From the NCBI RefSeq assembly GCF_003334335.1, contig NZ_QOWQ01000003.1: a stretch of DNA of 64,000 bases. One strand, written 5' to 3'. The stretch comes from Escherichia coli. GTDB lineage: Bacteria > Pseudomonadota > Gammaproteobacteria > Enterobacterales > Enterobacteriaceae. The translations under genes and the position numbers were made by a program. The notes under the pieces are model-generated. The model saw nothing but the letters and a program-made list of their open reading frames with translations, was not told the origin of the DNA and did no database searches. Positions 1 to 13,158 of this stretch are shown in pieces (the first letter of the stretch is position 1; every line of letters begins with the position of its first letter).

Positions 1-235
1 ACGCGAGGCATCGTCTTAACGAGGCACCGAGGCGTCGCATTCTTCAGATGGTTCAACCCTTAAGTTAGCGCTTATGGGGTCAGGTCTCCCCGTTCCGCAA
101 GCTGCCGCGATTTTTCCCGCCACTGCTTCACGGCGATATCATCCAGGTAGGCGGGGGCTTTCGGTGGTCTTGCCATGCTTATTTTTCGTCAGATTATTTT
201 TCAAAAAATTCCCGTGCATAAAAATTTGGGGAGGC

Positions 236-285
236 GTTCGGTGCCCGGCGGGGTCGGGTTTGTCCTGAAAACGCCCCCCACCCCG
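236..285. promoter_or_regulatory. GC-rich imperfect inverted repeat, candidate cos/packaging site
   Basis: GGGGAGGCGT ... ACGCCCCCC arms around GCCCGGCGGGGTCGGGTTTG core, flanked by AT-rich DNA, immediately downstream of the HNH gene. Confidence 0.25.
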
Positions 286-298
286 TCATACAGCCTCA

Positions 299-481
299 TC
301 AGCGATTGCGGAAACATTCCATAACCTCGCGGTCACGGTCGGTTAATCGCTTCGCTGTGATGCGTTCTGCGCGTCCTGACGCTTTATCTTTATGCCCTGT
401 TTCCTGTGTCTTCCATGCGTCACGCTGCCTTATAAGTCCACGGATAAGGCGGTTTTGTTCCCGCTCATTCATCAGCGTCAT
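299..481 (-). CDS. Hypothetical small protein (about 60 aa) overlapping the HNH stop
   Basis: ATG at 481-479 overlaps the last HNH codons; C-terminal LTDRDREVMECF stretch looks HTH-like; no convincing RBS. Confidence 0.25.
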   Translation of the reverse strand: MTLMNEREQNRLIRGLIRQRDAWKTQETGHKDKASGRAERITAKRLTDRDREVMECFRNR

Positions 482-905
482 ACATCCAGTTATTGCGGTT
501 AGCGGCCCGTTCTTCCTCTTCACGAAATCCACCTGCGGCACGCTTGCTTTTTGTTGCCGGATCAAGCCACTTCGTTTTCTGGTTATGACACGCCTGGCAC
601 AATGGCTGATGGTTCCATTCGGGCCAGAAGAGAACATCATCACCGCCATTAATCGGGATAATGTGATCCACCACCACGGCGGGCGTATATATCCCCTTCT
701 CAAGGCATCGCACGCATAACGGGTTTTTACTCAGATACATGGCGCGGTATTTTTCCCACTGTCTGGAGTACCCACGCGCGCGGCGGTGTCCTCGTCTGGC
801 ATCCTCTGCACGCCATGCCGCCCGCCTGTGCTCCTCACACTTGCCGGACTTAACGCGCCTGTTACAGCCTGGTTCTGTACATCGTCTTAATGGTTGCCAC
901 GGCAT
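465..905 (-). CDS. HNH endonuclease, phage packaging-associated
   Basis: 146 aa with Cys-rich N-terminus and DHIIP...H...N...CH...CH HNH-type motif; start overlaps connector stop (ATGA). Confidence 0.85.
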   Translation of the reverse strand: MPWQPLRRCTEPGCNRRVKSGKCEEHRRAAWRAEDARRGHRRARGYSRQWEKYRAMYLSKNPLCVRCLEKGIYTPAVVVDHIIPINGGDDVLFWPEWNHQPLCQACHNQKTKWLDPATKSKRAAGGFREEEERAANRNNWMYDADE

Positions 906-1201
906 CAGTACACCCCCACATCACGGTAAGCCGTCCAGAGCGCGCCAATCGTCATGGGTACGCGCGTTTTTGCGTTATCCGCTACCAGCTGGCGATTCTC
1001 GTACAGGTGAGCGATAAACATCATGCAGCCAATCTTTATGGCTGGCGTGAACTCCAGCCCGTCATCAAAGCGCCTGCCTATATGTATCTGGCACGCCTCA
1101 AGCGATGCGGCAATGTATCCGCTGATTAACTGGTCTTCCTCGTCGCCATCGATGCGGCAATGGAGTTTCACTTCTTCCAGGGTGATAAGTTCTTCTGTCA
1201 T
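905..1201 (-). CDS. Head-tail connector protein, gp6-like
   Basis: 98 aa, N-terminal ITLEEVKLHCRIDGDEEDQLI motif typical of gp6-like connector proteins; translationally coupled to neighbours. Confidence 0.8.
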   Translation of the reverse strand: MTEELITLEEVKLHCRIDGDEEDQLISGYIAASLEACQIHIGRRFDDGLEFTPAIKIGCMMFIAHLYENRQLVADNAKTRVPMTIGALWTAYRDVGVY

Positions 1202-1536
1202 TTTTCCGCGCCCTCACGACAAAGAATTTCAAGGCGTGTCCTGGCGGCATCCGGCAGCGGTTGCCCGATGATATTCAGTACACGCCCCGCCAGCGGCCCC
1301 GTACTGACCTTTATCCGGCTGGTGGCGTTGATGTCCTTCCGGTACCGTATCCAGATCCTTACGGTACCAATCGCCAGCTCTGCACCCGATGAAATGGCCT
1401 CCTTGCTGCTGATCATGTTCACGCTTGCCCAGAGTGTGTGACCGTCCTCCCACGTTTCGAGTATTTCGCCGGTTATATCCCTGGTCTGTTTCAGGGTCTG
1501 AATCGTTACCCTGTCACGCAGTCGCCCTATGTTCAT
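1198..1536 (-). CDS. Head closure / head-tail joining protein
   Basis: About 113 aa from ATG at 1536 overlapping portal stop; RVTIQ ... IRYR pattern of head-tail joining family. Confidence 0.7.
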   Translation of the reverse strand: MNIGRLRDRVTIQTLKQTRDITGEILETWEDGHTLWASVNMISSKEAISSGAELAIGTVRIWIRYRKDINATSRIKVSTGPLAGRVLNIIGQPLPDAARTRLEILCREGAEK

Positions 1537-2744
1537 TCCGGTTTTTCTCCCTCGCTGATTTTTACTTCCTGTTTCCATGCCTGGCTGAACTCATCACCAC
1601 CATCACGCGGGGACAGCCCTTCACGTTCGCGGGCTTCGTTCGGGCACATAACGCCGGATTTGATGCCGCGTTCATAGGTGGCAAAGCGTTCGCCAGGTGT
1701 GGCCCGTAACAGGTCCGCGCTGTCAAACTCCACCTGATACCGGATACCAGGTACAGGCGAGGCCACCAGCAGGGCGTTTTTTATCTGCTGCTCAAAGTTC
1801 GCCAGCCACGGGCGCATTGTCATGGTGAGAAATGCGCGGCTTGCCTCGCTGAAATTGCTGTAGGTGCTGTTGCTGTATTCCTGCAGAAAAATCGGCGAGA
1901 CGTTGAACATTCGGGCGATGTCTTCAATGGTGAAGCGACGGGAGGCCAGCCATTCAGCATCCTGATTACTCATGCCCAGCTGCTGATAGCTCATACCCCC
2001 TTCAAGGATGGGCGTTTTTCCGGCGTTTCTGGCCCCTTTGTAGCGTTCCAGTGCGGCTAATGCCTGTTTGCCCTTCACGCCGTCCAGCCATTCGCCTGAC
2101 GTGATAACCCCTGCCGCCATCATGCCATCACGCATCACGCTCGCGCCGTGGCGTTGTTGGGCCAGCCCAAGCCCCAGCGATTCGCGGCAGATGGTTACAG
2201 GTGAGCGCCCCATAAAACCGTCATCCGTGGAGTAACGAAGGTGGAGAACCTCCCACGGTAAATAGTTGCGGGTGTTTCCGGTGTAGGCGTCAGTGATGCA
2301 GTAGCGCCAGTTGTGTTCGCCTGTCTGCTCCACGTTCACCGACTGCGGCGGGTAAGGATGTAAAGCCACCGGAAAACCATCACGCCCCCACTGAATCACC
2401 GCATAAGCATTACCGTTTAACAGGCAGTGGCGGATCATCATTCGCTTAAACTGGTAGGGAGTCTGCCACGCGTTCGGGCGCTCGTTGAGGATGTGATCGA
2501 CCGGATGAGAATCAAGCCACTCGCGGGCCTCCTTCCCCTTCTCATTGCGTACCAGGTACAGGTAACACGGCATGGTAGCCACCGCCTCAGAGATGACCGT
2601 CACGGCGTTCATGACGGCGGGCAGTGATTCCGCTGTCCCCGATGATACGTACTCACCCGCCCCCGTGTTCGATGTGCCAGCCAGCGCCATAAATTCATCA
2701 AGCGTCATGCTGCGCTGCTCTTTTTTTCTTCTGAAAAGCCACAT
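1533..2744 (-). CDS. Phage portal protein, HK97 family
   Basis: 403 aa with portal-family conserved core; sits between protease and head-closure genes. Confidence 0.9.
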   Translation of the reverse strand: MWLFRRKKEQRSMTLDEFMALAGTSNTGAGEYVSSGTAESLPAVMNAVTVISEAVATMPCYLYLVRNEKGKEAREWLDSHPVDHILNERPNAWQTPYQFKRMMIRHCLLNGNAYAVIQWGRDGFPVALHPYPPQSVNVEQTGEHNWRYCITDAYTGNTRNYLPWEVLHLRYSTDDGFMGRSPVTICRESLGLGLAQQRHGASVMRDGMMAAGVITSGEWLDGVKGKQALAALERYKGARNAGKTPILEGGMSYQQLGMSNQDAEWLASRRFTIEDIARMFNVSPIFLQEYSNSTYSNFSEASRAFLTMTMRPWLANFEQQIKNALLVASPVPGIRYQVEFDSADLLRATPGERFATYERGIKSGVMCPNEAREREGLSPRDGGDEFSQAWKQEVKISEGEKPE

Positions 2745-2745
2745 A

Positions 2746-3303
2746 TCACACCCCCGCTAAATCCACCCACCAGCGGCGATTATCCGCACGCGGCATTTTT
2801 TCGGGGTGCTGCTCATACAGGGAACGGCGGGCCAGCTCCACGCCGGAATCGGGGTAAGCCGGTACCGATGTAACGGTAATTTCGTACAGTTCCGCCACCA
2901 GCACGGTGCGCACGCATGGATCTGTTGTGGTATCCCATACATCCTTACGGGAGCGAAAGCCAAAGCTCATCCCCGAGATGTCCCCACGCTTAACCAGTTC
3001 GATAACGTCGCGCCCTGTACTGGTATCCGGTGGGGTCAGTTCAAAGCGTAACCCTGTTTCGTCCTCTTCCAGTTTCAGCGTGCCGGAACGGGTACGCCCC
3101 AGCAACATGCTGTGGTCATGCTCATACAGGCCGCGAACGTCATTACCCGCCGCAAGCCATTCAGTAAACGCTCCCCGCTGGAATTTTTCGTAAAACTCCC
3201 CCCATAGCAGCTCTGAAAGCTTATCCCAGCGAACAACGTAGCCTGTAAGCGTGTTGCTGGCGCTGGTGGTGATTTCCGATGACCGGATTTCCATACTCTT
3301 CAT
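2746..3303 (-). CDS. Prohead (head maturation) protease, HK97 family
   Basis: About 185 aa; ORF track gives 2746..3318 but ATG at 3303 has the better RBS (GGGTGA); HK97 protease-like sequence. Confidence 0.85.
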   Translation of the reverse strand: MKSMEIRSSEITTSASNTLTGYVVRWDKLSELLWGEFYEKFQRGAFTEWLAAGNDVRGLYEHDHSMLLGRTRSGTLKLEEDETGLRFELTPPDTSTGRDVIELVKRGDISGMSFGFRSRKDVWDTTTDPCVRTVLVAELYEITVTSVPAYPDSGVELARRSLYEQHPEKMPRADNRRWWVDLAGV

Positions 3304-3318
3304 AATTTTTTCACCCAT

Positions 3319-3347
3319 AAAACACTAAAGGGGCTTTTAAGCCCCTT
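3319..3347 (-). terminator. Intercistronic hairpin/attenuator after major capsid gene
   Basis: AAGGGGC-loop-GCCCCTT stem followed by U-rich tract on minus strand between capsid stop and protease start. Confidence 0.5.
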
Positions 3348-3357
3348 CTGTATGCTG

Positions 3358-4515
3358 TTAATCGTCGTCCTGTGGCAGTTCCAGAATCTTGATCGCGTTC
3401 GAATCCACCACGCCACCGCCTAAATATTTCTGCGTGAAAATTTTGATGAAGCCCGGCTCTGTGAGGTTGTCCGGTCTGGTGCGAACACCTGTTTCGTGAT
3501 CAACAATGTAGTAACCGCGTTTGAAGTCACCCAGGGCAATAACGTTATCAGGCATAAACTCCAGATATTCGACCGGAAGGCCCAGCAACGTATCAGGATC
3601 ACCCGCCTGTAAACGGTCACGCCAGATGTAATCACCGTTCGCGTTCTTCACCTTCTGGAGTTTTGCCGCCGTCGTGGAGTTAACCACCCAGACCGCGTTT
3701 TTGCGGTATTTTTTACGTAATGCAAATTTCAGGTCGATCAGCGGGTCCGCAGATGTCCACGCCAGAGATTCGGAAGGTTTAATTACCTGCAACGTACCAA
3801 AATCACGCTCTTTGTCGTTCTTCTCTGCACGGGGTACGGATAAAAAGCCTTTTGCTTTTTTGTCACCGTCGCCCACAACCAGATCGCTTTCTTCGGTTTC
3901 CGTGAAGGTGTCGCCAATCTCGCCCGTCAGCCATGAAAGGATGTCCACATCGGAAAAATCCACGATTTCCTGTGTGGTGCGCGGGTACGCATAGACCGGA
4001 TACAGCTTAATGCTCACCTCGTTAATCTGCGGGGTGCTGGTCTGTTCGCGTGTCTTACCCTCTTCACCGTGGTTAACGGTCGCACCGCCAGCGGAAACAA
4101 GCTGCTTAAACTCGTTGCTGCTGATTTTCTTCACGGTACAGATGCGGCGCATGGTGGATTCATCCGTCAGCATTCGCATGATTTCGGTGTTCAGTTCGGG
4201 GATAACGGTATAACCACCATCAGCGGGAACGCCTGTACTTAATGCGCGGGTTTCACCTGTCAGGATGTAGTTGCGGAGTTCTGCCGGGTCAGTGGTCTGG
4301 CTGCTTTTACCTGGCTTGCTGCGCTCTTCGTCTGCAATGGCTTCAAGGCGGGAAATGTCTTTATCGAGGGATTCAGCTTTAGCGCGTAATTCGTCAAATG
4401 TTGCGCCCTCAGCATCGTTAAGACTGCGGTTTTCTTTTTCCGCGTTCTCCAGCATGTCGCGCATCTGATTTTTAATGGCGGTTTTCTGCTGGCGTAATTC
4501 GATTATTCTCGGCAT
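3358..4515 (-). CDS. Major capsid protein, HK97 fold, with N-terminal coiled-coil delta domain
   Basis: 385 aa; charged coiled-coil N-terminus then HK97-type capsid body; adjacent to prohead protease. Confidence 0.9.
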   Translation of the reverse strand: MPRIIELRQQKTAIKNQMRDMLENAEKENRSLNDAEGATFDELRAKAESLDKDISRLEAIADEERSKPGKSSQTTDPAELRNYILTGETRALSTGVPADGGYTVIPELNTEIMRMLTDESTMRRICTVKKISSNEFKQLVSAGGATVNHGEEGKTREQTSTPQINEVSIKLYPVYAYPRTTQEIVDFSDVDILSWLTGEIGDTFTETEESDLVVGDGDKKAKGFLSVPRAEKNDKERDFGTLQVIKPSESLAWTSADPLIDLKFALRKKYRKNAVWVVNSTTAAKLQKVKNANGDYIWRDRLQAGDPDTLLGLPVEYLEFMPDNVIALGDFKRGYYIVDHETGVRTRPDNLTEPGFIKIFTQKYLGGGVVDSNAIKILELPQDDD

Positions 4516-4522
4516 AAAAAAA

Positions 4523-4552
4523 GTCCTGGGGTTAAGTAAGGAACTCCAGGAC
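4523..4552 (-). promoter_or_regulatory. Hairpin plus U-run immediately 5' of capsid start codon
   Basis: GTCCTGG ... CCAGGAC stem (7 bp, about 16 nt loop) followed by TTTTTTT then ATG; no canonical SD at normal spacing. Confidence 0.35.
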
Positions 4553-4729
4553 GCGGCAAAAACTCAACCGTTTTTCATAAGGAAATCAGCAATCGCACCG
4601 ATCGTTTTCCCGCCTGGTAATGAATATTGGCGAGAACATTAACAGGCGGAAAAGTGGCCCCAGCGTCCTGGCACCACGGGCGAGAATAATCATGATTCAG
4701 TTCGGGTAAAATATGCCGATCCTGTCAGT

Positions 4730-4756
4730 GAACAACGTGGAACAACCGCGAACAAA
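4730..4756. promoter_or_regulatory. Three GAACAAC direct repeats at 10-bp phasing upstream of head operon
   Basis: gAACAACgtg gAACAACcgc gAACAAAtaa on plus strand (GTTGTTC on the transcribed minus strand), about 215 bp upstream of capsid start. Confidence 0.45.
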
Positions 4757-4761
4757 TAATT

Positions 4762-4796
4762 TACAAAAAATGACAAAAAGCCGGATTGCTCCGGCT
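4762..4796 (-). terminator. Rho-independent terminator after small cargo gene
   Basis: GCCGGAgcaaTCCGGC hairpin followed by TTTTTGTCATTTTTTG on minus strand. Confidence 0.7.
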
Positions 4797-4806
4797 GTAT
4801 GCGTGC

Positions 4807-5031
4807 TCAGTCCCTGATCCCTTTCAGAAATTCTATCAATGCATCTATCTGTTCAGGATTTACCGCCAGCATTTCACCGGACAGAGCACATCTCACAAAA
4901 CCATGCTGATCCTTTTCAATCAGTGCGCCCGTCTCCAGGAATGCGCGGTAATCATTGATGCTCATCGTCTCCATGTTGTCAGCATGGTATTTATCACGCT
5001 GTTTTAATATCTCATCAAATTTCATCGGCAT
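4807..5031 (-). CDS. Hypothetical protein, 74 aa, terminator-bounded cargo (moron-like) gene
   Basis: ATG at 5031 with GAGGAA RBS; terminators on both sides; no recognisable family. Confidence 0.55.
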   Translation of the reverse strand: MPMKFDEILKQRDKYHADNMETMSINDYRAFLETGALIEKDQHGFVRCALSGEMLAVNPEQIDALIEFLKGIRD

Positions 5032-5123
5032 TGTTTTTTCCTCTGTTGTGTCTGTTTGTTTCAGATAGTAACTATGCCTGACCGTGACGAAAACCCGGTA
5101 ATGCGCCATACCGTTTCAACTGG

Positions 5124-5149
5124 TGCAAAAAAAGCCGGATTTCTCCGGC
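5124..5149 (-). terminator. Rho-independent terminator ending the early/replication operon
   Basis: GCCGGAgaaaTCCGGC hairpin followed by TTTTTTT on minus strand; near-identical to hairpin at 4780-4795. Confidence 0.7.
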
Positions 5150-5156
5150 TGTGTGA

Positions 5157-5429
5157 TTAGCTGTCCTGGTAATTTCGCCATATTTCATCACCAGCACCAT
5201 CCATACCCATTTCGGCATAAGTGCGATCGACCGCCTTTTTCAGGTCTCCGTAATTATCCGGCGGCTCCGGTGGCCTCTGTGCCTTCCTGGAACATTCCAG
5301 CCGTCGCATCGTAACCTGATGCCGTTCCTTGTCTGTCTCCACCAGCAGCATGACTTCACCCCATCGCGCCGACGCCCTCCGGTAAAAGCCTTTTGCCTCG
5401 AGTTCCTCCGCTATGCGGTCATGTACCAT
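5157..5429 (-). CDS. Hypothetical protein, 90 aa
   Basis: ATG at 5429 with strong RBS (GAGGGGGTGA), 10 nt after SSB stop; no recognisable family. Confidence 0.55.
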   Translation of the reverse strand: MVHDRIAEELEAKGFYRRASARWGEVMLLVETDKERHQVTMRRLECSRKAQRPPEPPDNYGDLKKAVDRTYAEMGMDGAGDEIWRNYQDS

Positions 5430-5439
5430 CGTCACCCCC

Positions 5440-5850
5440 TCAGAACGGAATATCATCACCGTAGGGGTCATCGTCTCCCGCTGGTGGCTGATTACCCTGT
5501 GTGCCTGTGGTTTTGCGTCTGTTCCCGCCAGGACGTGCCGCACGGGCACTGATTACGCTGTCTGCAATAACCTGATACCCCTGTCGTGTTTCCCCGTTCT
5601 GTCCGGTCCACTGGCTTACCTGCATCGTGCCGGATACGCTGGCAACATCGCCTTTTTGATGTTTAGCCAGGAAATCGGCCTGTTTGCCAAATGCGATAAC
5701 CGATAACCATAACGTCGCCTGTCCGTCATGTGCTTGGCTGCATGGCAACGATACCGCCATACGCGCCAGAGTCATCGGTGTGCCCTTGCTGCTCTGTTTT
5801 ACCAGCGGGTCGTCCACCAGGCGCCCGTAAGCTGCAATTTGTGCTGTCAT
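5440..5850 (-). CDS. ssb: Single-stranded DNA-binding protein
   Basis: 136 aa; OB-fold region aligns with E. coli SSB; Gly/Gln-rich linker and acidic C-terminal tip ending DDIPF. Confidence 0.85.
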   Translation of the reverse strand: MTAQIAAYGRLVDDPLVKQSSKGTPMTLARMAVSLPCSQAHDGQATLWLSVIAFGKQADFLAKHQKGDVASVSGTMQVSQWTGQNGETRQGYQVIADSVISARAARPGGNRRKTTGTQGNQPPAGDDDPYGDDIPF

Positions 5851-5859
5851 ATTGCCACC

Positions 5860-6165
5860 TCAGTGAAGCGATCCGGCGTTGTTCTTTTTCATCTCTTCCA
5901 TCATTTTTTCAGTGAGCATTACGCACTGAAAACCCATGTTTTTGATGTCTACGGGTTTCATGCCTTTGTCAGTGGATATCACAGGCAGAATATCCTGATA
6001 CACATCGCGGTCAGGGTAACTAAGCACACAAAGCGCCCATGATGCCACGGGTGAGGATCCTTCGTCTGTTTCAACCCACCAGCCTGGTGTAGCTGCGCTT
6101 ATTTGCTGAATCGTGATCCGTCCGTTGTGCTTGTAAAGTTTTTCACCAAATTTTGGTTCGCTCAT
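5860..6165 (-). CDS. Hypothetical protein, 101 aa
   Basis: Start overlaps upstream gene stop (ATGA); operon context; no recognisable family. Confidence 0.5.
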   Translation of the reverse strand: MSEPKFGEKLYKHNGRITIQQISAATPGWWVETDEGSSPVASWALCVLSYPDRDVYQDILPVISTDKGMKPVDIKNMGFQCVMLTEKMMEEMKKNNAGSLH

Positions 6166-6413
6166 GATTCCAACTCTCCGGTTTTAACGTTGATTGTTGT
6201 TACCTGTTCCGCTTCGGCAATCTCACGTTCTGTCAGCGTGGCAAAGTTTGCCGCTGCTGTGGTCATGAATGCGCTTATCAGGTCGGGATGTTCTTTCGCG
6301 TATCCTTCCCCCGCGTGGCGGTCTATCGTTCTGATTGCCACCTTTAAGGCGTGCTCTGTCATGTCTAACGCTTTATATTTTGGCTCTGTTCTGTCTCTGT
6401 GTTTTTGAGTCAT
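6162..6413 (-). CDS. Hypothetical protein, about 84 aa
   Basis: ORF track gives 6162..6545 but that N-terminal extension runs through the iteron array; ATG at 6413 has GAGGTG RBS. Confidence 0.45.
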   Translation of the reverse strand: MTQKHRDRTEPKYKALDMTEHALKVAIRTIDRHAGEGYAKEHPDLISAFMTTAAANFATLTEREIAEAEQVTTINVKTGELES

Positions 6414-6620
6414 TTGCCCACCTCTACCCACTTTTTTCGCCCACTTTTTACGTTTTCCCACTTCGTCCAACGTGGGAAATTTGGGATTTATATCATCTTG
6501 TTTCATAGGTATTTTTTTAGTGCCCACTTTTTGGGATATATACACGTGGGAAAGTGGGTAATTTTGTTAAAATTACGTTAAATCGCCCACCTTTCCCACT
6601 TTTAATGCCCACTTTTTACA
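6414..6620. repeat. Candidate replication origin: iteron array around an AT-rich spacer
   Basis: At least 10 copies of (G/T)CCCAC(T)n / GTGGGAAA in both orientations flanking an AT-rich segment (about 6478-6518), directly 3' of the replication protein gene. Confidence 0.6.
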
Positions 6621-8013
6621 GTGGTCCTACATCATCACCGTCAATGTAGATCACGTCGTCTTTTTCCAGTTTGGCTAACCATCGTTTAAGGTGTTTTGTG
6701 TCATACCCCAGCTTTTTCATATCGTCACGTAACAGCGGGATCGTGCACTTGTCGCCGTGCTGTGTGCGTGAACGTATGCACCCCCATAGCGCGGTATGGT
6801 TTTCCGTCTTGTTGCCTGCCTCCTCGATGCGCTCCAGTTCAACGGGAGGGCGCGGCTTATCCACCACCACCAGCGACGTGATTAACTCCCCGTCAGCGTC
6901 GGTAAAAAGCTCCACCACCCGCAAATCATAGGCAGCCTCTTTGAGTTCCTCCGCGTCCTTCATTTTGGTGCATGAGATAACCAGCGCTTCGCTTCCTGCG
7001 TCCTCCCTGCGTATCCGGTATTCAGCATCCAGCGAAGCACGAAATGCACTGGAACCGCGCGCGCCTTTCGTCTCATCCTTGCCGGAATGGTGAACCACCA
7101 GCACCGTGGCCCCTGTGCGCCGTTTAAGCTCGTCACACCCACGGATAAACGCCCCCATATCACGGGAATCATTTTCATCATTGCCACCAAAGCAACGCGC
7201 CAGAGTATCAAGAATAATCATGCGTACAGGTTTACCCGTTTCCCGCTCCACCTGACGGGCAGCGATAACCAGTTCATCAACATCAAGCGGGACAGCCGGA
7301 AAAACTGGACGGTTTACCAGATACAGATTTTTCACCTGCTCACCGTGCACAACCTCCCAGGCTTTTACACGACGCGGAACGCCGATACCGCCTTCACCAA
7401 CCACATAGAGAACAGCGCCATGCGCCACCCTGCGGCCTCCCCACTGGCGGCCCGTGGAAACGTGACACGCCCACGAACCCGCAAGGAATGATTTATAGGA
7501 ACCGCTTGCCCCGTATATGCTGCATAGCGACGATGCCGGAATAATCCCCTTTACCACGTAATCTAATTGCGTGTCGTATCCGGCAGATCCAACGCTCATC
7601 GGTAGCGTGGTTTTTCGCTGGTGGTGTTCTTCCCCTGGCTTTTTCCCCCGCTCCCGTTCCAGATATTCGCGCCAGTTCTCCCGCTTCTGGCTGTGTATCC
7701 CTTCGGGGTAATAATTCGCATCAGTTACGCCCGCCGCCGCCAGCTTGTGCGCAATGGCATTAATATTTGATGGCCTGATGTGGCCTGCCTTGTACAGCCG
7801 GACACAATAGCGCCCCTCGTCGATGATTCTCAGGTCTGCCAGTTCATCCAGTTGATCATCAGCCAGCACAATGGGAGGCACATTATCGCCAGCCAGTCGC
7901 CCGTCCTGTTCCTGCCACTGTTTCGCATGTGCCCACGCATCACTACCCGCAAAAATGATGACTTCGGTCATCTTGTCGTAAGGCTGTTTTTTTAAGTTCG
8001 GTGCGCTTTTCAT
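6616..8013 (-). CDS. Satellite replication protein, RecA/DnaB-like P-loop ATPase with N-terminal extension
   Basis: 465 aa; Walker A GASGSYKS and ILDTLARCFGG...VHHSGK helicase-like motifs; followed by the iteron array. Confidence 0.85.
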   Translation of the reverse strand: MKSAPNLKKQPYDKMTEVIIFAGSDAWAHAKQWQEQDGRLAGDNVPPIVLADDQLDELADLRIIDEGRYCVRLYKAGHIRPSNINAIAHKLAAAGVTDANYYPEGIHSQKRENWREYLERERGKKPGEEHHQRKTTLPMSVGSAGYDTQLDYVVKGIIPASSLCSIYGASGSYKSFLAGSWACHVSTGRQWGGRRVAHGAVLYVVGEGGIGVPRRVKAWEVVHGEQVKNLYLVNRPVFPAVPLDVDELVIAARQVERETGKPVRMIILDTLARCFGGNDENDSRDMGAFIRGCDELKRRTGATVLVVHHSGKDETKGARGSSAFRASLDAEYRIRREDAGSEALVISCTKMKDAEELKEAAYDLRVVELFTDADGELITSLVVVDKPRPPVELERIEEAGNKTENHTALWGCIRSRTQHGDKCTIPLLRDDMKKLGYDTKHLKRWLAKLEKDDVIYIDGDDVGPL

Positions 8014-8309
8014 TTCTTGCCCCTGAATCCGTTAATCATGTTTTTCATCTTCTGAATATTGGCGCGTGCTTTCTCCCTGCTGGTGGGCACGTTACGCGGT
8101 ACGGCCTGCACCAGAGAAAAATCACGCCGGAACTGATAAACAGGCATCACGCAATCATATTCGTAACTTTCACGACGGTAGGTTACGCGCCGTTCCTCCA
8201 CGCCCTTAATCATTACCGTGCCGCCGTACTGGTCGCGGTAAATATCACCGCGCGTAAATTTAGGGTGAGTGTTGCCACTGGCAGTTAAGCCAGAATATTT
8301 AAGTTTCAT
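8010..8309 (-). CDS. Hypothetical protein, 99 aa
   Basis: ATG with GGAG RBS; stop overlaps rep start. Confidence 0.5.
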   Translation of the reverse strand: MKLKYSGLTASGNTHPKFTRGDIYRDQYGGTVMIKGVEERRVTYRRESYEYDCVMPVYQFRRDFSLVQAVPRNVPTSREKARANIQKMKNMINGFRGKK

Positions 8310-8314
8310 TATTT

Positions 8315-8548
8315 TTATTCTCCGGTGTGCTGTTCGTTATATCTGTCGTGCAATGTCTCTATTTCTTGTAGTTCCATTATTACAGGCTCAAGAAGCGTTA
8401 TTAATGCCGTGACAATTCTTGATTTTTGTTTGTCGCGTTCATTGTCGCCAAGTGTTTCAAGCCATATGCGCAATATTTCCAGCATGTTTTCACTGTGAGA
8501 AAGTGCAAGAAATACGCGTTCTGTTGTTTCGTGGTAAATATCACGCAT
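8315..8548 (-). CDS. Hypothetical protein, 77 aa
   Basis: ATG at 8548 with GAGGA RBS; operon context. Confidence 0.5.
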   Translation of the reverse strand: MRDIYHETTERVFLALSHSENMLEILRIWLETLGDNERDKQKSRIVTALITLLEPVIMELQEIETLHDRYNEQHTGE

Positions 8549-8620
8549 GGCTTACATCCTCAGGAAATTTTCTTCTGTAACGCGCCTCTGCCACATATTC
8601 CGCATAATCGGCGGCGATAT

Positions 8621-8773
8621 TCAGTACATCAAGCCCGTTGATTTATATTCTCTCGTGGAAAGTAAGAAAAAAGCCGCTCTAATAAGTTCTGGCATTGACG
8701 AAAGCGCATCAGCCGCATCATCAGGAACGCCGGAAAATTCTTGTTTCAGGGAATTAAAACGATCATCACGCAT
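8621..8773 (-). CDS. Hypothetical small protein, about 50 aa
   Basis: ATG at 8773 preceded by GGGGGG RBS; overlaps upstream gene stop by 8 nt. Confidence 0.3.
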   Translation of the reverse strand: MRDDRFNSLKQEFSGVPDDAADALSSMPELIRAAFFLLSTREYKSTGLMY

Positions 8774-8996
8774 AACCCCCCCCATTTTCACAATCAGCAA
8801 CAAGAATATTTTTAGCGTCATTCAGCGACCGCGTTGCGGTGTATCGGATACATTCCAGGGCGAATAGTGTGTATTCTTCCCTTTCTTCCCTTTCTTCCTT
8901 TTGTGCAAGCTCTGCTGTGCATTCAATATCAATAAGCGCGTGCATCAGCGTAGTGAGTGCGGCGGCGGCTGCGTCCGGTGTGGTTTTATTGCACAT
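8766..8996 (-). CDS. Hypothetical protein, about 76 aa, acidic Glu-rich segment
   Basis: ATG at 8996 overlapping the stop of the upstream gene. Confidence 0.4.
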   Translation of the reverse strand: MCNKTTPDAAAAALTTLMHALIDIECTAELAQKEEREEREEYTLFALECIRYTATRSLNDAKNILVADCENGGGYA

Positions 8997-9216
8997 GTAC
9001 CCCTCCGCATTTTTTTTCGTTAGAAATAAGCGTTCTTCTTTCCTGTTCATCGATCAGGAATACGCAGACCTCACCGCTAAGGCGTTTAAGTAAGCCGATG
9101 ATTGCCCCTGATTCGCTGTCGGTCATCATGCCTGGGTAATCCTCTGCCAGTGCGCAAATAACTTCGATTTGGTGGGCGCGTTCTGCTGCCTGTTGTAGTG
9201 TGATTTCCTGGCTCAT
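8986..9216 (-). CDS. Hypothetical protein, 76 aa
   Basis: ATG at 9216 overlapping stop of upstream ORF (ATGA). Confidence 0.5.
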   Translation of the reverse strand: MSQEITLQQAAERAHQIEVICALAEDYPGMMTDSESGAIIGLLKRLSGEVCVFLIDEQERRTLISNEKKCGGVHVQ

Positions 9217-9413
9217 AAGCCTACCCCCTGACGAATACGGGCAGCGAATACCATCACGCAGCCAGCCGGGGATTGCAGGCGTGCTTCCTGTTCGCTGGTG
9301 GCCTCAATGGTAATCACGCGCGGTTGTGCAGTGCTCAGGGCGATAAAACGCCAAATGTATTTATTCAGGTTGTGCGAGTCCCGCCCTTGCGGGTGTGTGG
9401 TATGATTTCTCAT
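9213..9413 (-). CDS. Hypothetical protein, 66 aa, first gene of leftward operon
   Basis: ATG at 9413 with GAGGTAG RBS; this is the only plausible part of the spurious 340-aa ORF 9213..10235. Confidence 0.45.
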   Translation of the reverse strand: MRNHTTHPQGRDSHNLNKYIWRFIALSTAQPRVITIEATSEQEARLQSPAGCVMVFAARIRQGVGL

Positions 9414-9508
9414 AGCTACCTCGATACTCTCGTTATCGTTGGTGGTTAGAAGCCCGGTTAGTGTTAGCGCACTGCCGGGTTTCGTCGTTTCTGCACCTTG
9501 CGCCAACA

Positions 9509-9566
9509 AGGTGTTGAACACCAATTTAAACCCAGGTGTTAAACACGTCAAGTGTTGAACACTTAT
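9509..9566. promoter_or_regulatory. Three palindromic operators in divergent promoter region
   Basis: GGTGTTGAACACC, GGTGTTAAACAC and AGTGTTGAACACT; last one contains TTGAAC -35 candidate with CATACT -10 about 17 bp downstream for the RHH gene. Confidence 0.5.
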
Positions 9567-9612
9567 TTTTTTTCCTGCATACTGCATTTGTTTTTTATGA
9601 GGGGTACACCAC

Positions 9613-9792
9613 ATGGCGACAAAAGCAGTAAACGCAAAATCACAAACCGTTGCGGCAAGGGTTCCGCATGAAGTTATGAACAATGTTGAGGCGGTAAAAA
9701 TGCCTGGCGAAAGTACGGGGCAATTTGTTACTGCAGCATTAAAACGAGAAGTTGAATATCGCCAGCGGCGCAAGGCCAAAGAACCAGAGTAA
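9613..9792 (+). CDS. Ribbon-helix-helix DNA-binding protein, 59 aa, candidate satellite repressor
   Basis: Not in ORF track (below 60 aa); ATG with GAGGGG RBS; AARVPHEV beta-strand then helices, typical Arc/CopG-like pattern. Confidence 0.55.
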   Translation: MATKAVNAKSQTVAARVPHEVMNNVEAVKMPGESTGQFVTAALKREVEYRQRRKAKEPE

Positions 9793-9834
9793 TCACCATC
9801 AGCGCCGTGGTGTAAGGTATTACGGCGCATTGCT

Positions 9835-10023
9835 ATGCAGGACAACACAATGACCGATAAAGAATTGACCAAAACATTATCACCGGCACGGAAAAGACGG
9901 CGCAGAAAGATAGAGCATGAATCAGAAAGATTCGCGCCATGTGCTTTTGCCCTTGAGCAATTCCTTAAAGAGTACAGGGAAAAGCGCTCATTGCAGGTAT
10001 GGCAACGAACTGAACCAGACTGA
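9835..10023 (+). CDS. Hypothetical small basic protein, 62 aa
   Basis: Lies between the RHH gene and a plus-strand terminator in the same transcription unit; weak RBS. Confidence 0.35.
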   Translation: MQDNTMTDKELTKTLSPARKRRRRKIEHESERFAPCAFALEQFLKEYREKRSLQVWQRTEPD

Positions 10024-10116
10024 TAGCATTGCCCACCAGCCTGATAGCGACTATCATTGCCGTTCTTATGTTTGGGATCACACACACAAACGGCGCAGCG
10101 GGTTATCTGTTCAGAA

Positions 10117-10148
10117 AGGCGGCTCCATTTCGGGGCCGCTTTTTTTAT
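10117..10148 (+). terminator. Rho-independent terminator of the RHH operon
   Basis: GCGGC...GCCGC hairpin followed by TTTTTTTT. Confidence 0.65.
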
Positions 10149-10292
10149 ACCTGAAAAACCCCAATTTTGTTGTTTTTCAGTTTCACCAGGGCGAACGAAT
10201 CCCCGCCCACGTTCTGGCGTATATTCAATCTTCATGGTTATAGCTCTGTGTTCAGATGATTGATGTGTGGCGGCTGCGTGCCGCCAGCGTGA

Positions 10293-10481
10293 TTAATGAA
10301 CTGCCTTGCAGCTATCCTTCCAGGCCAGAACCTCGGATAAAGACCAGCCAACGGAACGACCGCCAAGTTTACGACGTGATGGGAATTGTCCGGCCTTTTC
10401 CAGGCGGTAGCGACACGTACGGCTAAGGCCGGTTAGTTTTTCGCATTCTTTTTCACGTATAAACCGATCAGTGCTTAACAC
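10293..10481 (-). CDS. alpA: AlpA-family transcriptional regulator/excisionase
   Basis: GTG start at 10481 with strong RBS (AAGGGGGG); ORF track extends to a TTG at 10562; EKLTGLSRTCRYRLEKAGQFP HTH typical of AlpA. Confidence 0.75.
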   Translation of the reverse strand: MLSTDRFIREKECEKLTGLSRTCRYRLEKAGQFPSRRKLGGRSVGWSLSEVLAWKDSCKAVH

Positions 10482-10631
10482 TATTGCCCCCCTTTCGTTT
10501 CTTAAAGAGTCATCAGGTGTCTTATTGTGTCGTATTGTTCCCGCTAGAGTGATGAATGGCAAATATTGAGGATGTATTATTTACAGAAAATGAAACAGTA
10601 AGAATAAAATCTTTTAAATTCATGTTAATAC

Positions 10632-10666
10632 AAAGGCATAAAATATTGTTTCATGCCTTTTTTTTC
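10632..10666 (+). terminator. Hairpin plus T8 terminator in int-alpA spacer
   Basis: GGCAT...ATGCC stem followed by TTTTTTTT on plus strand. Confidence 0.45.
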
Positions 10667-10754
10667 GCTCTTTAAAGAGTGATTCGCTAGTGTATAAAAA
10701 ACCAGTGACACATTAAAAATCAGCCACTTATAAATCTGTATGCTTTTTCGCCTC

Positions 10755-10810
10755 TTGTTCGTGGTTGTTCCACATTGTTGCTCATTGTTGCACGTTGTAT
10801 CTGTTCGCAT
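10755..10810. promoter_or_regulatory. Five to six TTGTT(C/G) direct repeats at 10-bp phasing
   Basis: cTTGTTCgtgg TTGTTCcaca TTGTTGctca TTGTTGcacg TTGTATctg TTCGC between int stop and alpA; same motif as at 4730-4756. Confidence 0.45.
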
Positions 10811-10846
10811 ATCCAGTATGCGCATACTGAAAAAACACGAAAAAAA

Positions 10847-12064
10847 TTATTTTCTTCTGGCTACGGGTAGCGTGGTTACGTTTTCATGTGTTCCCGCCAG
10901 TATCCCTAACCGCTCCGTCCACATATCCAGCGCATTGCGTTTAGCATCCAGATAACGGGAATGATTATAAACTCGCTGCATTCCTGGCATCTGGTGGCCT
11001 GTAAGCTGCTCCACGACATGCGGATCAACGCCTAAATCGTTCAGCATGGTTGTAAAGGTGCGCCGGATGTCATGCAGTGACCAGTGAGGATGATTAAGCC
11101 TCCTGTGCGCTAATCTTCCATACTGCGATACGCTGGCCTCCTGTTTCACTTCCCCCAGCAATAAGCCCGTGTGCCTGTTCTGCTCCACCAGCTGCGTGAC
11201 GAACGGCAGGATCGCTTCCGGTATGGGCCGGAATATTGCGACCTTCGTTTTGCTGTGCTCCTTCGGAACGGTCCATAGCATTTCCGTAAAATCCCACTCC
11301 CCGATCTCCGATAACCTCAGTTCTACCGTTCTGGCTCCGAAGACAATCAGGAGGCGGATTAACGCGACGTAGTAAGGGGAGAATATTTTTTTGTCCAGTG
11401 CCTGCAATAATTCGCCAAGTTCTTTGTTACTTAAGACACGTTCGCTTATATCCGGTTTTTTCCCAACGTCCGCCACGTTCAGATCGTCCAGAACGTTGCT
11501 GATTGCATAGCGCCGCCTACGGCAGAACTTAAGCGCCTGTTTGCACGCCTGTAGCACGAATCCGGCAGTAACAGGCGTTCGCTTTGCCACCTGGTCAAAA
11601 CAGGCCAGCCAGTGCCGTAGCTCGCATTTATCCAGCGGCATAGCACCAATCTGCTGTATTACGTGATTATTAAGTCGCCTTTTCAGGGCGATATAATCCA
11701 CGCGGTTTTCCTTTACGTAATACTCAAGCCAGTAGGTGAGCGCATCGCCAACCGTTACGGGCTTTAACGCTTCCTGTACGGTGTAATTCATCTCATGACG
11801 TGGATTTTTCCCCTCAGCCAGCCATGTGCGACACTGTGCGGCTTTTTCCCTGGCTGCTTTCAGGCTCAGATCAGGATAACTTCCCAGCTTAATGCGTTCG
11901 GGTCGTGTCTCCCTTCCCGTTCCGGCCCTGTATGTGAAATACCAGGTCAATTTCCCTGATGTTAAATATTTCACGCTCAGGTTTCCGCCATCACTATAAA
12001 ACGTGTTTTTCTCCGCTGGCTTACCATGAAGTTTCCTTAGCAAGGTATCGCTCAGTTTGTTCAT
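10847..12064 (-). CDS. int: Tyrosine integrase, P4-like
   Basis: About 405 aa from ATG at 12064 (ORF track starts at a GTG at 12076); P4-type N-terminal arm-binding region and C-terminal catalytic region with HDIRRTF and trailing Tyr; next to insertion junction. Confidence 0.9.
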   Translation of the reverse strand: MNKLSDTLLRKLHGKPAEKNTFYSDGGNLSVKYLTSGKLTWYFTYRAGTGRETRPERIKLGSYPDLSLKAAREKAAQCRTWLAEGKNPRHEMNYTVQEALKPVTVGDALTYWLEYYVKENRVDYIALKRRLNNHVIQQIGAMPLDKCELRHWLACFDQVAKRTPVTAGFVLQACKQALKFCRRRRYAISNVLDDLNVADVGKKPDISERVLSNKELGELLQALDKKIFSPYYVALIRLLIVFGARTVELRLSEIGEWDFTEMLWTVPKEHSKTKVAIFRPIPEAILPFVTQLVEQNRHTGLLLGEVKQEASVSQYGRLAHRRLNHPHWSLHDIRRTFTTMLNDLGVDPHVVEQLTGHQMPGMQRVYNHSRYLDAKRNALDMWTERLGILAGTHENVTTLPVARRK

Positions 12065-12100
12065 TGCTCTGCTCACGTTTTACCCCCTCTTTACGAAAAA

Positions 12101-12123
12101 GTGACTACACCAGTGACTACACC
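12101..12123. repeat. Tandem direct repeat (A)GTGACTACACC x2 between int and insertion junction
   Basis: Two adjacent copies seen directly in sequence; candidate integrase arm-type site or promoter element. Confidence 0.35.
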
Positions 12124-12252
12124 GATCGTTGCACAAAGGGCTACAACGTGAAACAAGCTGGAACAAGGAAAATCACAAATCTGTTGATAATCAAAAACAT
12201 AATGCACAGCCTGAAACATTATGAAACAGCAAAAAACACTAAATGATAAAAT

Positions 12253-13158
12253 GCTGTTATTCTTAACCCGCTGGTGCAACACATGGTCCGCTGGCGTGTG
12301 CCGCGTGTACTGGCGGTGTCGATTTTGATGACCATCATCGTGATGGCGATGGTGTTGCTATTAGCTTATCTGGGTTCCGCGCTCAACGAGTTGACGCGGA
12401 CGTTACCGCAATATCGCAACTCTATTATGACGCCGCTGCAAGCGCTTGAAGCGTTGTTGCAACGCGTAGGGATTGACGTCTCAGTTGACCAGCTGGCGCA
12501 TTATATTGATCCGAACGCGGCGATGACGTTGCTCACCAACTTATTGACGCAGTTATCTAATGCCATGTCATCAATATTTTTATTGCTGCTGACGGTGCTG
12601 TTTATGCTGCTCGAAGTGCCACAATTGCCCGGAAAATTTCAGCAAATGATGGCGCGTCCGGTTGAAGGGATGGCGGCGATTCAACGTGCGATTGACAGTG
12701 TTTCTCATTATCTGGTGCTGAAAACAGCCATCAGCATCATCACCGGCCTGGTCGCCTGGGCGATGCTCGCCGCACTCGATGTTCGCTTCGCTTTTGTCTG
12801 GGGATTGCTGGCCTTTGCGCTTAATTACATCCCGAATATTGGTTCAGTCCTCGCGGCAATCCCCCCTATCGCTCAGGTACTGGTGTTTAATGGCTTCTAC
12901 GAAGCGTTGCTGGTGCTGGCGGGATATCTGCTGATTAATCTGGTCTTCGGCAATATTCTGGAGCCGCGTATCATGGGGCGTGGGCTGGGGCTTTCCACAT
13001 TGGTGGTATTTTTGTCGTTGATTTTTTGGGGATGGTTGTTAGGACCGGTGGGTATGCTGCTTTCCGTGCCGTTGACAATTATTGTCAAAATTGCGCTTGA
13101 ACAAACAGCGGGAGGTCAAAGCATCGCCGTTCTGTTAAGCGATCTCAATAAAGAGTGA
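12253..13158 (+). pseudogene. tqsA: tqsA (AI-2 exporter) 3' fragment, 5' end displaced by the satellite
   Basis: Protein matches TqsA from about residue 50 onward; in-frame TAA immediately upstream at the junction; only GTG/ATG internal starts remain. Confidence 0.8.

Follow-up and report, generated by a model that had tools for sequence, protein, structure and literature searches.

A tandem 12-bp repeat beside the integrase gene of a capsid-forming phage satellite in Escherichia coli: probable arm-type sites of the satellite integrase

The tandem repeat that separates the integrase gene of an Escherichia coli phage satellite from the chromosomal junction very probably represents the P-arm arm-type sites (P1/P2) of the satellite's own integrase, Int, as comparison with related elements suggests. 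Throughout, the window is the whole stretch of DNA that was analysed, 64,000 nucleotides of contig NZ_QOWQ01000003.1 (RefSeq assembly GCF_003334335.1). Positions 12100-12123 of its plus strand read A-GTGACTACACC-A-GTGACTACACC, and the true unit is thus the 12-mer AGTGACTACACC, present as two exact head-to-tail copies with a 12-nt period: unit 1 (int-proximal, 12100-12111) and unit 2 (core-proximal, 12112-12123). Tandem Repeats Finder likewise reports 2.0 copies with a period of 12 and 100% matches. The original prediction had placed two adjacent copies 25-50 bp upstream of the integrase start and about 130 bp from the chromosomal junction, and these positions hold: the pair lies 24-47 nt upstream of the GTG start codon of int (12076, minus strand), and its end is separated by 128 nt from the att core TGCTGTTAT at 12252-12260. 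Across the 64 kb, the only exact copies of GTGACTACACC, and the only matches to RACTACACC, are those of the pair. No other string of 11 nt or more in the window is exactly duplicated in adjacent positions (period 11-15). As at least one exact adjacent duplication of at least 11 nt occurs in 8% of first-order Markov-simulated 64-kb sequences, these within-window statistics are only suggestive, and the weight of the argument lies with the comparative data.

On its sequence, the element that carries the pair is a capsid-forming phage satellite of the PICI type, inserted in tqsA, the flanking chromosomal gene next to pntB. Its body occupies positions 76-12251 of the window, with all genes on the minus strand and the left part missing, and is 97% identical to a complete 15.3-kb copy in strain H19 (locus L002). 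The H19 copy contains int, alpA, an icd-like gene and genes for RepA helicase, SSB, PerC, connectors, HNH and terS/terL, together with those for an HK97-type capsid, protease and portal; genes for a tail are lacking. An int-alpA-replication module combined with its own capsid and packaging genes, the lack of a tail, a length of approximately 10-15 kb and a specific attB all fit a capsid-forming PICI, and the published description of EcCIEDL933 (10.1101/2022.09.08.507074) fits the satellite type of the window and H19. Positions 1-75 of the window are the terminal ~75 nt of an insertion sequence of the IS421/IS186 type (IS4-like), which abuts the satellite near terS. Because this insertion sequence cuts the satellite at about position 75, the far end of the satellite (the terL side, with the P' arm) lies outside the window. 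Of 5,426 complete E. coli genomes, 247 have the integrase-tqsA junction, and none was found to have the junction between insertion sequence and satellite.

Three further features were noted in the satellite body. A 340-aa open reading frame at 9213-10235 (minus strand) has a translation that looks of low complexity and is rich in cysteine, and it may not be a real gene; related genomes annotate here only an 'Icd-like' pseudogene and a small YlcI/YnfO gene on the opposite strand. Three copies of TTTT(A/T)(G/A)(T/C)GCCCACTTTTT, at 6432-6449, 6515-6532 and 6600-6617 (also as 6427-6451 and 6595-6619), lie just upstream of the gene for the RepA helicase (6616-8013, minus strand); they have a spacing of 83-85 nt and resemble the iterons of a replication origin. 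Finally, two 27-nt copies of AAAAAGCCGGATT(G/T)CTCCGGCTGT(A/G)TG, 93% identical to each other, lie at 4775-4801 and 5129-5155, each with a GC-rich hairpin (GCCGGA...TCCGGC); they are terminator-like and flank a small gene upstream of the capsid module.

The right junction (attR) of the satellite with tqsA lies at the core. The 9-bp core TGCTGTTAT is the longest string common to both ends of the complete H19 element, and was taken as the crossover identity. To its right, the 3' part of tqsA, an AI-2 transporter gene, runs from 12253 to 13158 (plus strand) and is annotated by RefSeq in identical loci as 'tqsA, incomplete, missing N-terminus'; the 5' part, 144 nt, lies at the other end of the element (L002 2903-3046). 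Insertion of the satellite therefore splits tqsA after about 48 codons, and no in-frame replacement start is supplied. A tRNA scan of the window found none, and a tRNA-type attB is absent because the element integrates in a protein-coding gene. In the reconstructed attP of the O157:H7 element (L003), an inverted repeat, TGATAAAA-TATGTCC-TTTTATCA, surrounds a 7-bp overlap (L003 8193-8215, 19395-19411), and TGATAAAA and TTTTATCA are likely to be the pair of core-type Int sites. In the window, the probable core-type site C, TGATAAAA, is borne by the element at 12244-12251 (plus strand) and is conserved beside the different cores of four elements. The right half-site of the tqsA type, ATATATAA, is a poorer match than TTTTATCA.

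The int gene (10847-12076, minus strand) starts with GTG and encodes a tyrosine integrase of 409 aa, as shown by the open reading frame, the RefSeq annotation of identical loci and Pfam. Residues 8-95, encoded at 11792-12055 (minus strand; translation checked), form an arm-binding domain (Arm-DNA-bind_3, PF13356, E=1.1e-17), which we propose as the reader of the repeats, and residues 214-375 match the Phage_integrase domain (PF00589). Among solved structures, the N-terminal domain also matches two arm-binding domains of P4-like integrases, 3JTZ/3RMP (E=2.8e-6) and 3JU0 (E=1.6e-3). These come from the integrases of the HPI and HAI7 islands and are the structural prototypes for DUF4102 / Arm-DNA-bind_3 (PMC8138268); their homology to the Int N-domain is detectable in sequence, although, unlike the satellite in the window, HPI and HAI7 are large genomic islands integrated at tRNA genes. 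The N-domain of lambda Int belongs to a different fold subgroup, the DUF4102-type domains having an extra strand and helix (PMC8138268). The satellite also carries alpA (10293-10481, minus strand; translation checked), whose 62-aa product is a regulator of the AlpA/Vis family (PF05930, E=6e-17) and a probable recombination directionality factor. It is 45% identical (E=1e-16) to P4 Vis, which is annotated as 'excisionase and transcriptional regulator', and alpA was found in every relative.

The strongest evidence for the arm-type reading comes from these relatives, which were gathered from genomes of E. coli, from viral contigs and by looking up the genomic context of exact protein matches. In E. 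coli they occupy the sites phoQ/roxA, smrA/abgR, clpS/cspD, thiM/rcnR and dusB-fis; others come from Salmonella, Yersinia, Serratia, Cronobacter and Enterobacter, or from viral contigs. The opposite arm of the complete H19 copy holds a matching pair, AATGACTACACC-AGTGACTACACC, which lies 72 nt inward of the left core and shares its strand with the int-side pair. All 14 Int lineages examined for it (53-100% identical) have a pair with a 12-nt period 14-55 nt upstream of int, and the full pair-core-pair layout recurs in 15 integrase lineages (50-100% identical) from six genera. In eight of eight complete elements, 125-128 nt separate the P pair from the core and 59-74 nt the core from the P' pair; the eight are integrated at six sites in the chromosome, their cores differ and their spacers have diverged. 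Each of L002-L005, L207, L209, L214 and L216 has exactly two occurrences of the degenerate tandem pattern, one in either arm and both on one strand; the chance expectation is about 5e-6 per locus. Thus, both comparisons bear out the original suggestion of an arm-type site: the other end of the complete H19 copy has the matching pair in the same orientation, and the related integrase loci all have a pair, at a conserved distance from the core and with concerted changes of sequence. A partner pair, fixed core spacing, an arm-binding N-domain in Int and a P4-like layout are what such sites would be expected to show.

The sequence of the unit changes in concert across all four copies in both arms. 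The window has AGTGACTACACC; L003, L004, L005 and L212 have ATTAACTACACC; L213 and L214 have A(C/T)AGACTACACC; L215, L216 and L218 have ACTGACTACAC(C/A); L207, L210 and L217 have ACTGACCACAC(A/C); and L211 has ACTGACCGCAC(C/A). The consensus across 14 lineages, to which both units of the window conform, is A-N-W-R-A-C-Y-R-C-A-C-M. A contiguous and intact attP is available in vB_KppS-Ant, an induced and packaged relative whose Int is 50% identical. Read from int, it consists of 16 nt, AGTGTTTATACA-AATGTTTATACA, 130 nt, the core TACGGCATGAACTGATAC, 61 nt and AGTGTTTATACA-TATGTTTATACA; the layout is that of the window's relatives, and a different unit is carried by all four copies.

Some results of the searches concern annotation and resemblance rather than the satellite itself. 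In the Salmonella locus L217 (10001-10048), the called Int is over-extended by 16 codons (VWSVVWSALAKKKGDA...), and this extension, a gene-call artefact, is the arm-site pair translated on the int strand (CTGACCACAC twice). A DNA search of the phage collection with the int region gave no match, and a scan of species-representative genomes with peptide patterns from the Int alignment, which were too specific, returned a single unrelated locus. The pattern scan of viral contigs recovered 16 arms of this satellite family, many coding repeats for Thr-Thr-Pro and several AT-rich non-coding families. Among the latter are TTT-ACTACACC tandems with a 12-nt period, sometimes in three copies, in the AT-rich viral contigs L019, L112, L057, L033, L038, L028, L106 and others. 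We considered ACTACACC tandems as arm sites of unrelated phages and rejected them, as none of the AT-rich families has a divergent integrase beside the motif; their resemblance to the satellite arm sites may be coincidence.

Which protein reads the sites can be approached by asking what varies with them. Between the window and the O157:H7 element L003, alpA is 100% identical in DNA, the arm beyond the pair 96% and the catalytic domain of Int 97.5%, whereas the N-domain of Int (first 100 residues) is only 78% identical. DNA identity drops to 60-80% over exactly 11913-12111 (L003 19067-19265). This diverged block between the tqsA type and the phoQ/roxA type has a sharp mosaic boundary, ending exactly at the arm-site pair. 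The site variant is AGTG in the window and ATTA in L003, in both arms, and in the P' arm the change falls within otherwise identical flanks. Overall, the differences between the tqsA type and the phoQ/roxA type are confined to the first ~55 codons of int, its leader and the variable positions of the four arm sites, with alpA, the rest of int and the arms 96-100% identical. Similarly, L005 and L207 share one AlpA type and have different Ints and different sites (ATTAACTACACC in L005, ACTGACCACACA in L207), while L003 and L004 have an AlpA type unlike that of L005 and yet the same site. Across 13 lineages, which are phylogenetically non-independent and in which the partners are physically linked, site distance correlated modestly with N-domain distance in the unconditioned comparison (rho=0.23, p=0.037), but not with AlpA distance (p=0.15) or with the rest of Int (p=0.18). 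In partial Mantel tests on the same 13 lineages, sites followed the N-domain given AlpA (r=0.36, p=0.003) and did not follow AlpA given the N-domain (r=-0.02, p=0.55). By these comparisons, the arm-site unit tracks the Int N-domain (PF13356) and not AlpA. The P pair and the Int N-domain, joined by the P' pair when the element is circular, all lie within ~500 bp, and part of this co-inheritance could therefore reflect linkage instead of co-adaptation; against this, the sites also change inside otherwise identical flanks. Position 7 of the site is C where the WYF[R/K]YR strand of Int has Arg or Lys, and T where it has Thr, Ser or Ala, a pattern that probably represents a single clade and is a lead, not proof. 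The invariant part of the site, A..RACYRCAC, is uninformative as to the identity of the binder.

Among the alternatives, binding of the pair by an AlpA/Vis-type protein instead of Int, as a directionality factor or an activator of int, has a small chance of being correct. Proteins of the AlpA family bind direct repeats in att arms, and AlpA activates the integrase gene of CP4-57; here the pair lies upstream of int, every relative has alpA, and the AlpA of the window resembles the excisionase and regulator Vis. The comparisons above argue against it, since the site variant changes between the window and L003 while alpA stays identical, the sites of L005 and L207 differ despite one AlpA type, and no association of site with AlpA is left once the Int N-domain is taken into account. 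The equivalent repeats in P4 are, moreover, annotated as arm repeats. A better candidate for AlpA is a set of phased AACAA arrays. One, (T/A)ACAA repeated three times with a 10-nt period, follows directly after the pair (12142-12167, plus strand), as it does in both arms of relatives; a second (GAAACA, GAAACA, AAAACA; 12213-12238, plus strand), also with a 10-nt period, abuts the core, and relatives have analogous core-proximal arrays. Further (G)AACAA arrays, of three to five pentamers with an exact 10-nt period, are found in the int-alpA spacer (10755-10799, minus strand), and another lies at 4731-4755, ~220 nt upstream of the major capsid gene. Five of the six matches to the phased array in the window fall in the satellite, against 0.04 expected, and the arrays of relatives lie within the elements, with none in the flanking chromosome. 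These (G)AACAA arrays are candidate sites for AlpA/Vis in its roles as directionality factor and regulator, or candidate intrinsic bends.

There is a slim chance that the pair is recognised by a different protein, whether a factor of the host with an architectural or regulatory function or another conserved protein of the satellite. The invariant RACYRCAC could in principle be a host-factor site common to all hosts, but a host factor would not explain the concerted, lineage-specific changes of four copies within E. coli (AGTGACTACACC, ATTAACTACACC, ACTGACCACACA, ACTGACTACACC), nor the wholly different unit of vB_KppS-Ant or P4 within the same architecture. The motif is also unlike the IHF consensus, which is WATCAANNNNTTR. 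It seems very unlikely that the pair serves int expression alone, as a cis element (part of a promoter or operator, or an RNA element of the 5'-UTR), and has no role in recombination. In favour of this, the pair and the Shine-Dalgarno sequence of int are 10 nt apart, the pair would form part of the int transcript or mark its beginning, and its position relative to the start codon is conserved, at a distance of 14-55 nt. However, the opposite arm has an identical pair, which is 10-15 kb away from int when the element is integrated and upstream of no gene start; the spacing that is kept, to within ~3 nt, is that to the core and not that to the start codon; and no sigma-70 consensus overlaps the pair. 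It is hardly conceivable that the pair is a neutral local duplication that arose by chance. The simulated frequency given above would allow for one such duplication, but chance is refuted by the comparative data: 15 lineages from six genera keep the pair in both arms and at a constant spacing from the core, while the flanks diverge. We thus favour arm-type sites of Int.

If the pair is indeed bound by Int, as we infer from these comparisons, its position suggests a second role. No gene separates the int start (12076, minus strand) from the core (12252), and the orientation of int puts its promoter in the arm. The int Shine-Dalgarno sequence, GAGGGGG, was read at 12083-12089 (minus strand). As the pair adjoins this ribosome-binding site (the gap is 10 nt; in relatives the pair is 14-55 nt from the start codon), int transcription must start within or upstream of the pair, and Int bound there should repress int. 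The pair would then also be an operator through which Int represses its own gene, a negative autoregulation for which, judging from position, we consider the odds to be even. A consensus scan of the int strand over 12077-12260 found no sigma-70-like site, and among conserved hexamers, which were examined by eye, none was consistent from lineage to lineage; the int promoter, which the original prediction had named as the alternative to an arm-type site, may be weak or activator-dependent. Precedents exist. Panis et al. (2010; PMC2951348) showed that IntS of KplE1, acting at an arm-type site within the att arm, represses its own promoter, and P4 Int is reported to regulate itself by direct DNA binding near the int start (PMC2951348). 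In the IntS/TorI system of KplE1 (CPS-53), as in the window, int abuts att and points away from it, with the promoter region within the arm; both arm-type and directionality factor sites overlap the int promoter, and int is repressed by Int and down-regulated by the directionality factor (PMC2951348). The promoter, transcription starts and repression of KplE1 were mapped experimentally, whereas the regulation proposed for the window is deduced from position, and KplE1 differs from the window element in its site sequences and integration target.

The layout of the repeats is shared with P4 (NC_001609), in which the 'attP arm sequence repeat' features are also 12-nt units in adjacent direct pairs. 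One P4 pair, AGATGCCCCCAA-TTATGCCCCCAA, lies 16-39 nt upstream of int (24-47 nt in the window) and 112 nt from the core (128 nt in the window), and a second adjacent pair lies 53 nt past the core (59-74 nt in the window's relatives). Both integrases have an Arm-DNA-bind_3 N-domain, and the P4 regulator Vis is homologous to the AlpA of the window. There are also differences. The P4 unit, NNRTGCCCCCNN, is unrelated to the satellite consensus A-N-W-R-ACYRCAC-M, and P4 Int is a distant homolog from a different Int lineage (24% identity, E=5e-13). Two extra single copies of the P4 repeat, of which the first overlaps the int start and the second lies within int, have no counterpart in the window, where such copies were looked for and not found. 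P4 integrates at a tRNA gene, in contrast to the insertion inside the protein-coding tqsA, and the window element is a capsid-forming PICI and not a P4-like satellite. Judged from these features, the attP architecture of the window is of the P4 type in its layout, but not in its Int or its site sequence.

The arm sites of lambda, like those of the satellite family, lie roughly -130 and +70 from the core. As proposed for the window, the core of lambda attP is flanked on either side by arm sites in direct repeat (P1, P2 and P'1-P'3) that serve a heterobivalent Int, and accessory factors for bending and directionality act in the stretches between these sites and the core (PMC2951348). Lambda, however, has two plus three sites, with P1 and P2 separated, where the window has adjacent pairs, and lambda int, unlike that of the window, is not transcribed from within the arm.

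In the reading favoured here, a heterobivalent Int in the satellite would act on the core at the tqsA junction through its C-terminal domains, while its N-terminal domain (residues ~8-95) would dock on the 12-bp sites. The P pair and the matching pair in the P' arm would tether the Int N-domains, and bridging of arms and core, together with DNA bending and an AlpA/Vis-type directionality factor, would lead to assembly of the intasome. This intasome could serve both integration (attP x attB) and excision (attL x attR). Arm sites of this kind are already known and are expected for this integrase family, which follows the P4 plan, and our understanding of site-specific recombination is unchanged. 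In the PICI literature that we searched, the Int arm sites and AlpA sites of these elements are not described, nor are the arm-site consensus, the rigid spacing or the mosaic of N-domain and sites.

In summary, this work suggests a simple rule for the P4-like (DUF4102) PICI integrases of Enterobacterales: a pair with a 12-nt period is to be found 14-55 nt upstream of int, and a further pair ~190-200 nt on, across the core. The functional att region can be delimited accordingly, with attP extending from about -155 to +100 around the core and positions 12100-12260 as the part within the window. The satellite family is widespread in E. coli, and these limits should be useful for annotating PICI boundaries and for integration vectors and excision assays. 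The carriers, 247 of 5,426 complete genomes, should be without functional TqsA, and in the lysogenic state int is predicted to be self-limited. Finally, it is possible, although we think it rather doubtful, that the N-terminal half-domain of Int and the arm sites form a swappable specificity cassette that prevents cross-reaction of co-resident satellites. If true, this would offer a readable residue-to-base code for the arm-binding domains of the DUF4102 type, and would explain how an E. coli genome can hold up to six such integrases without mixing of their intasomes.
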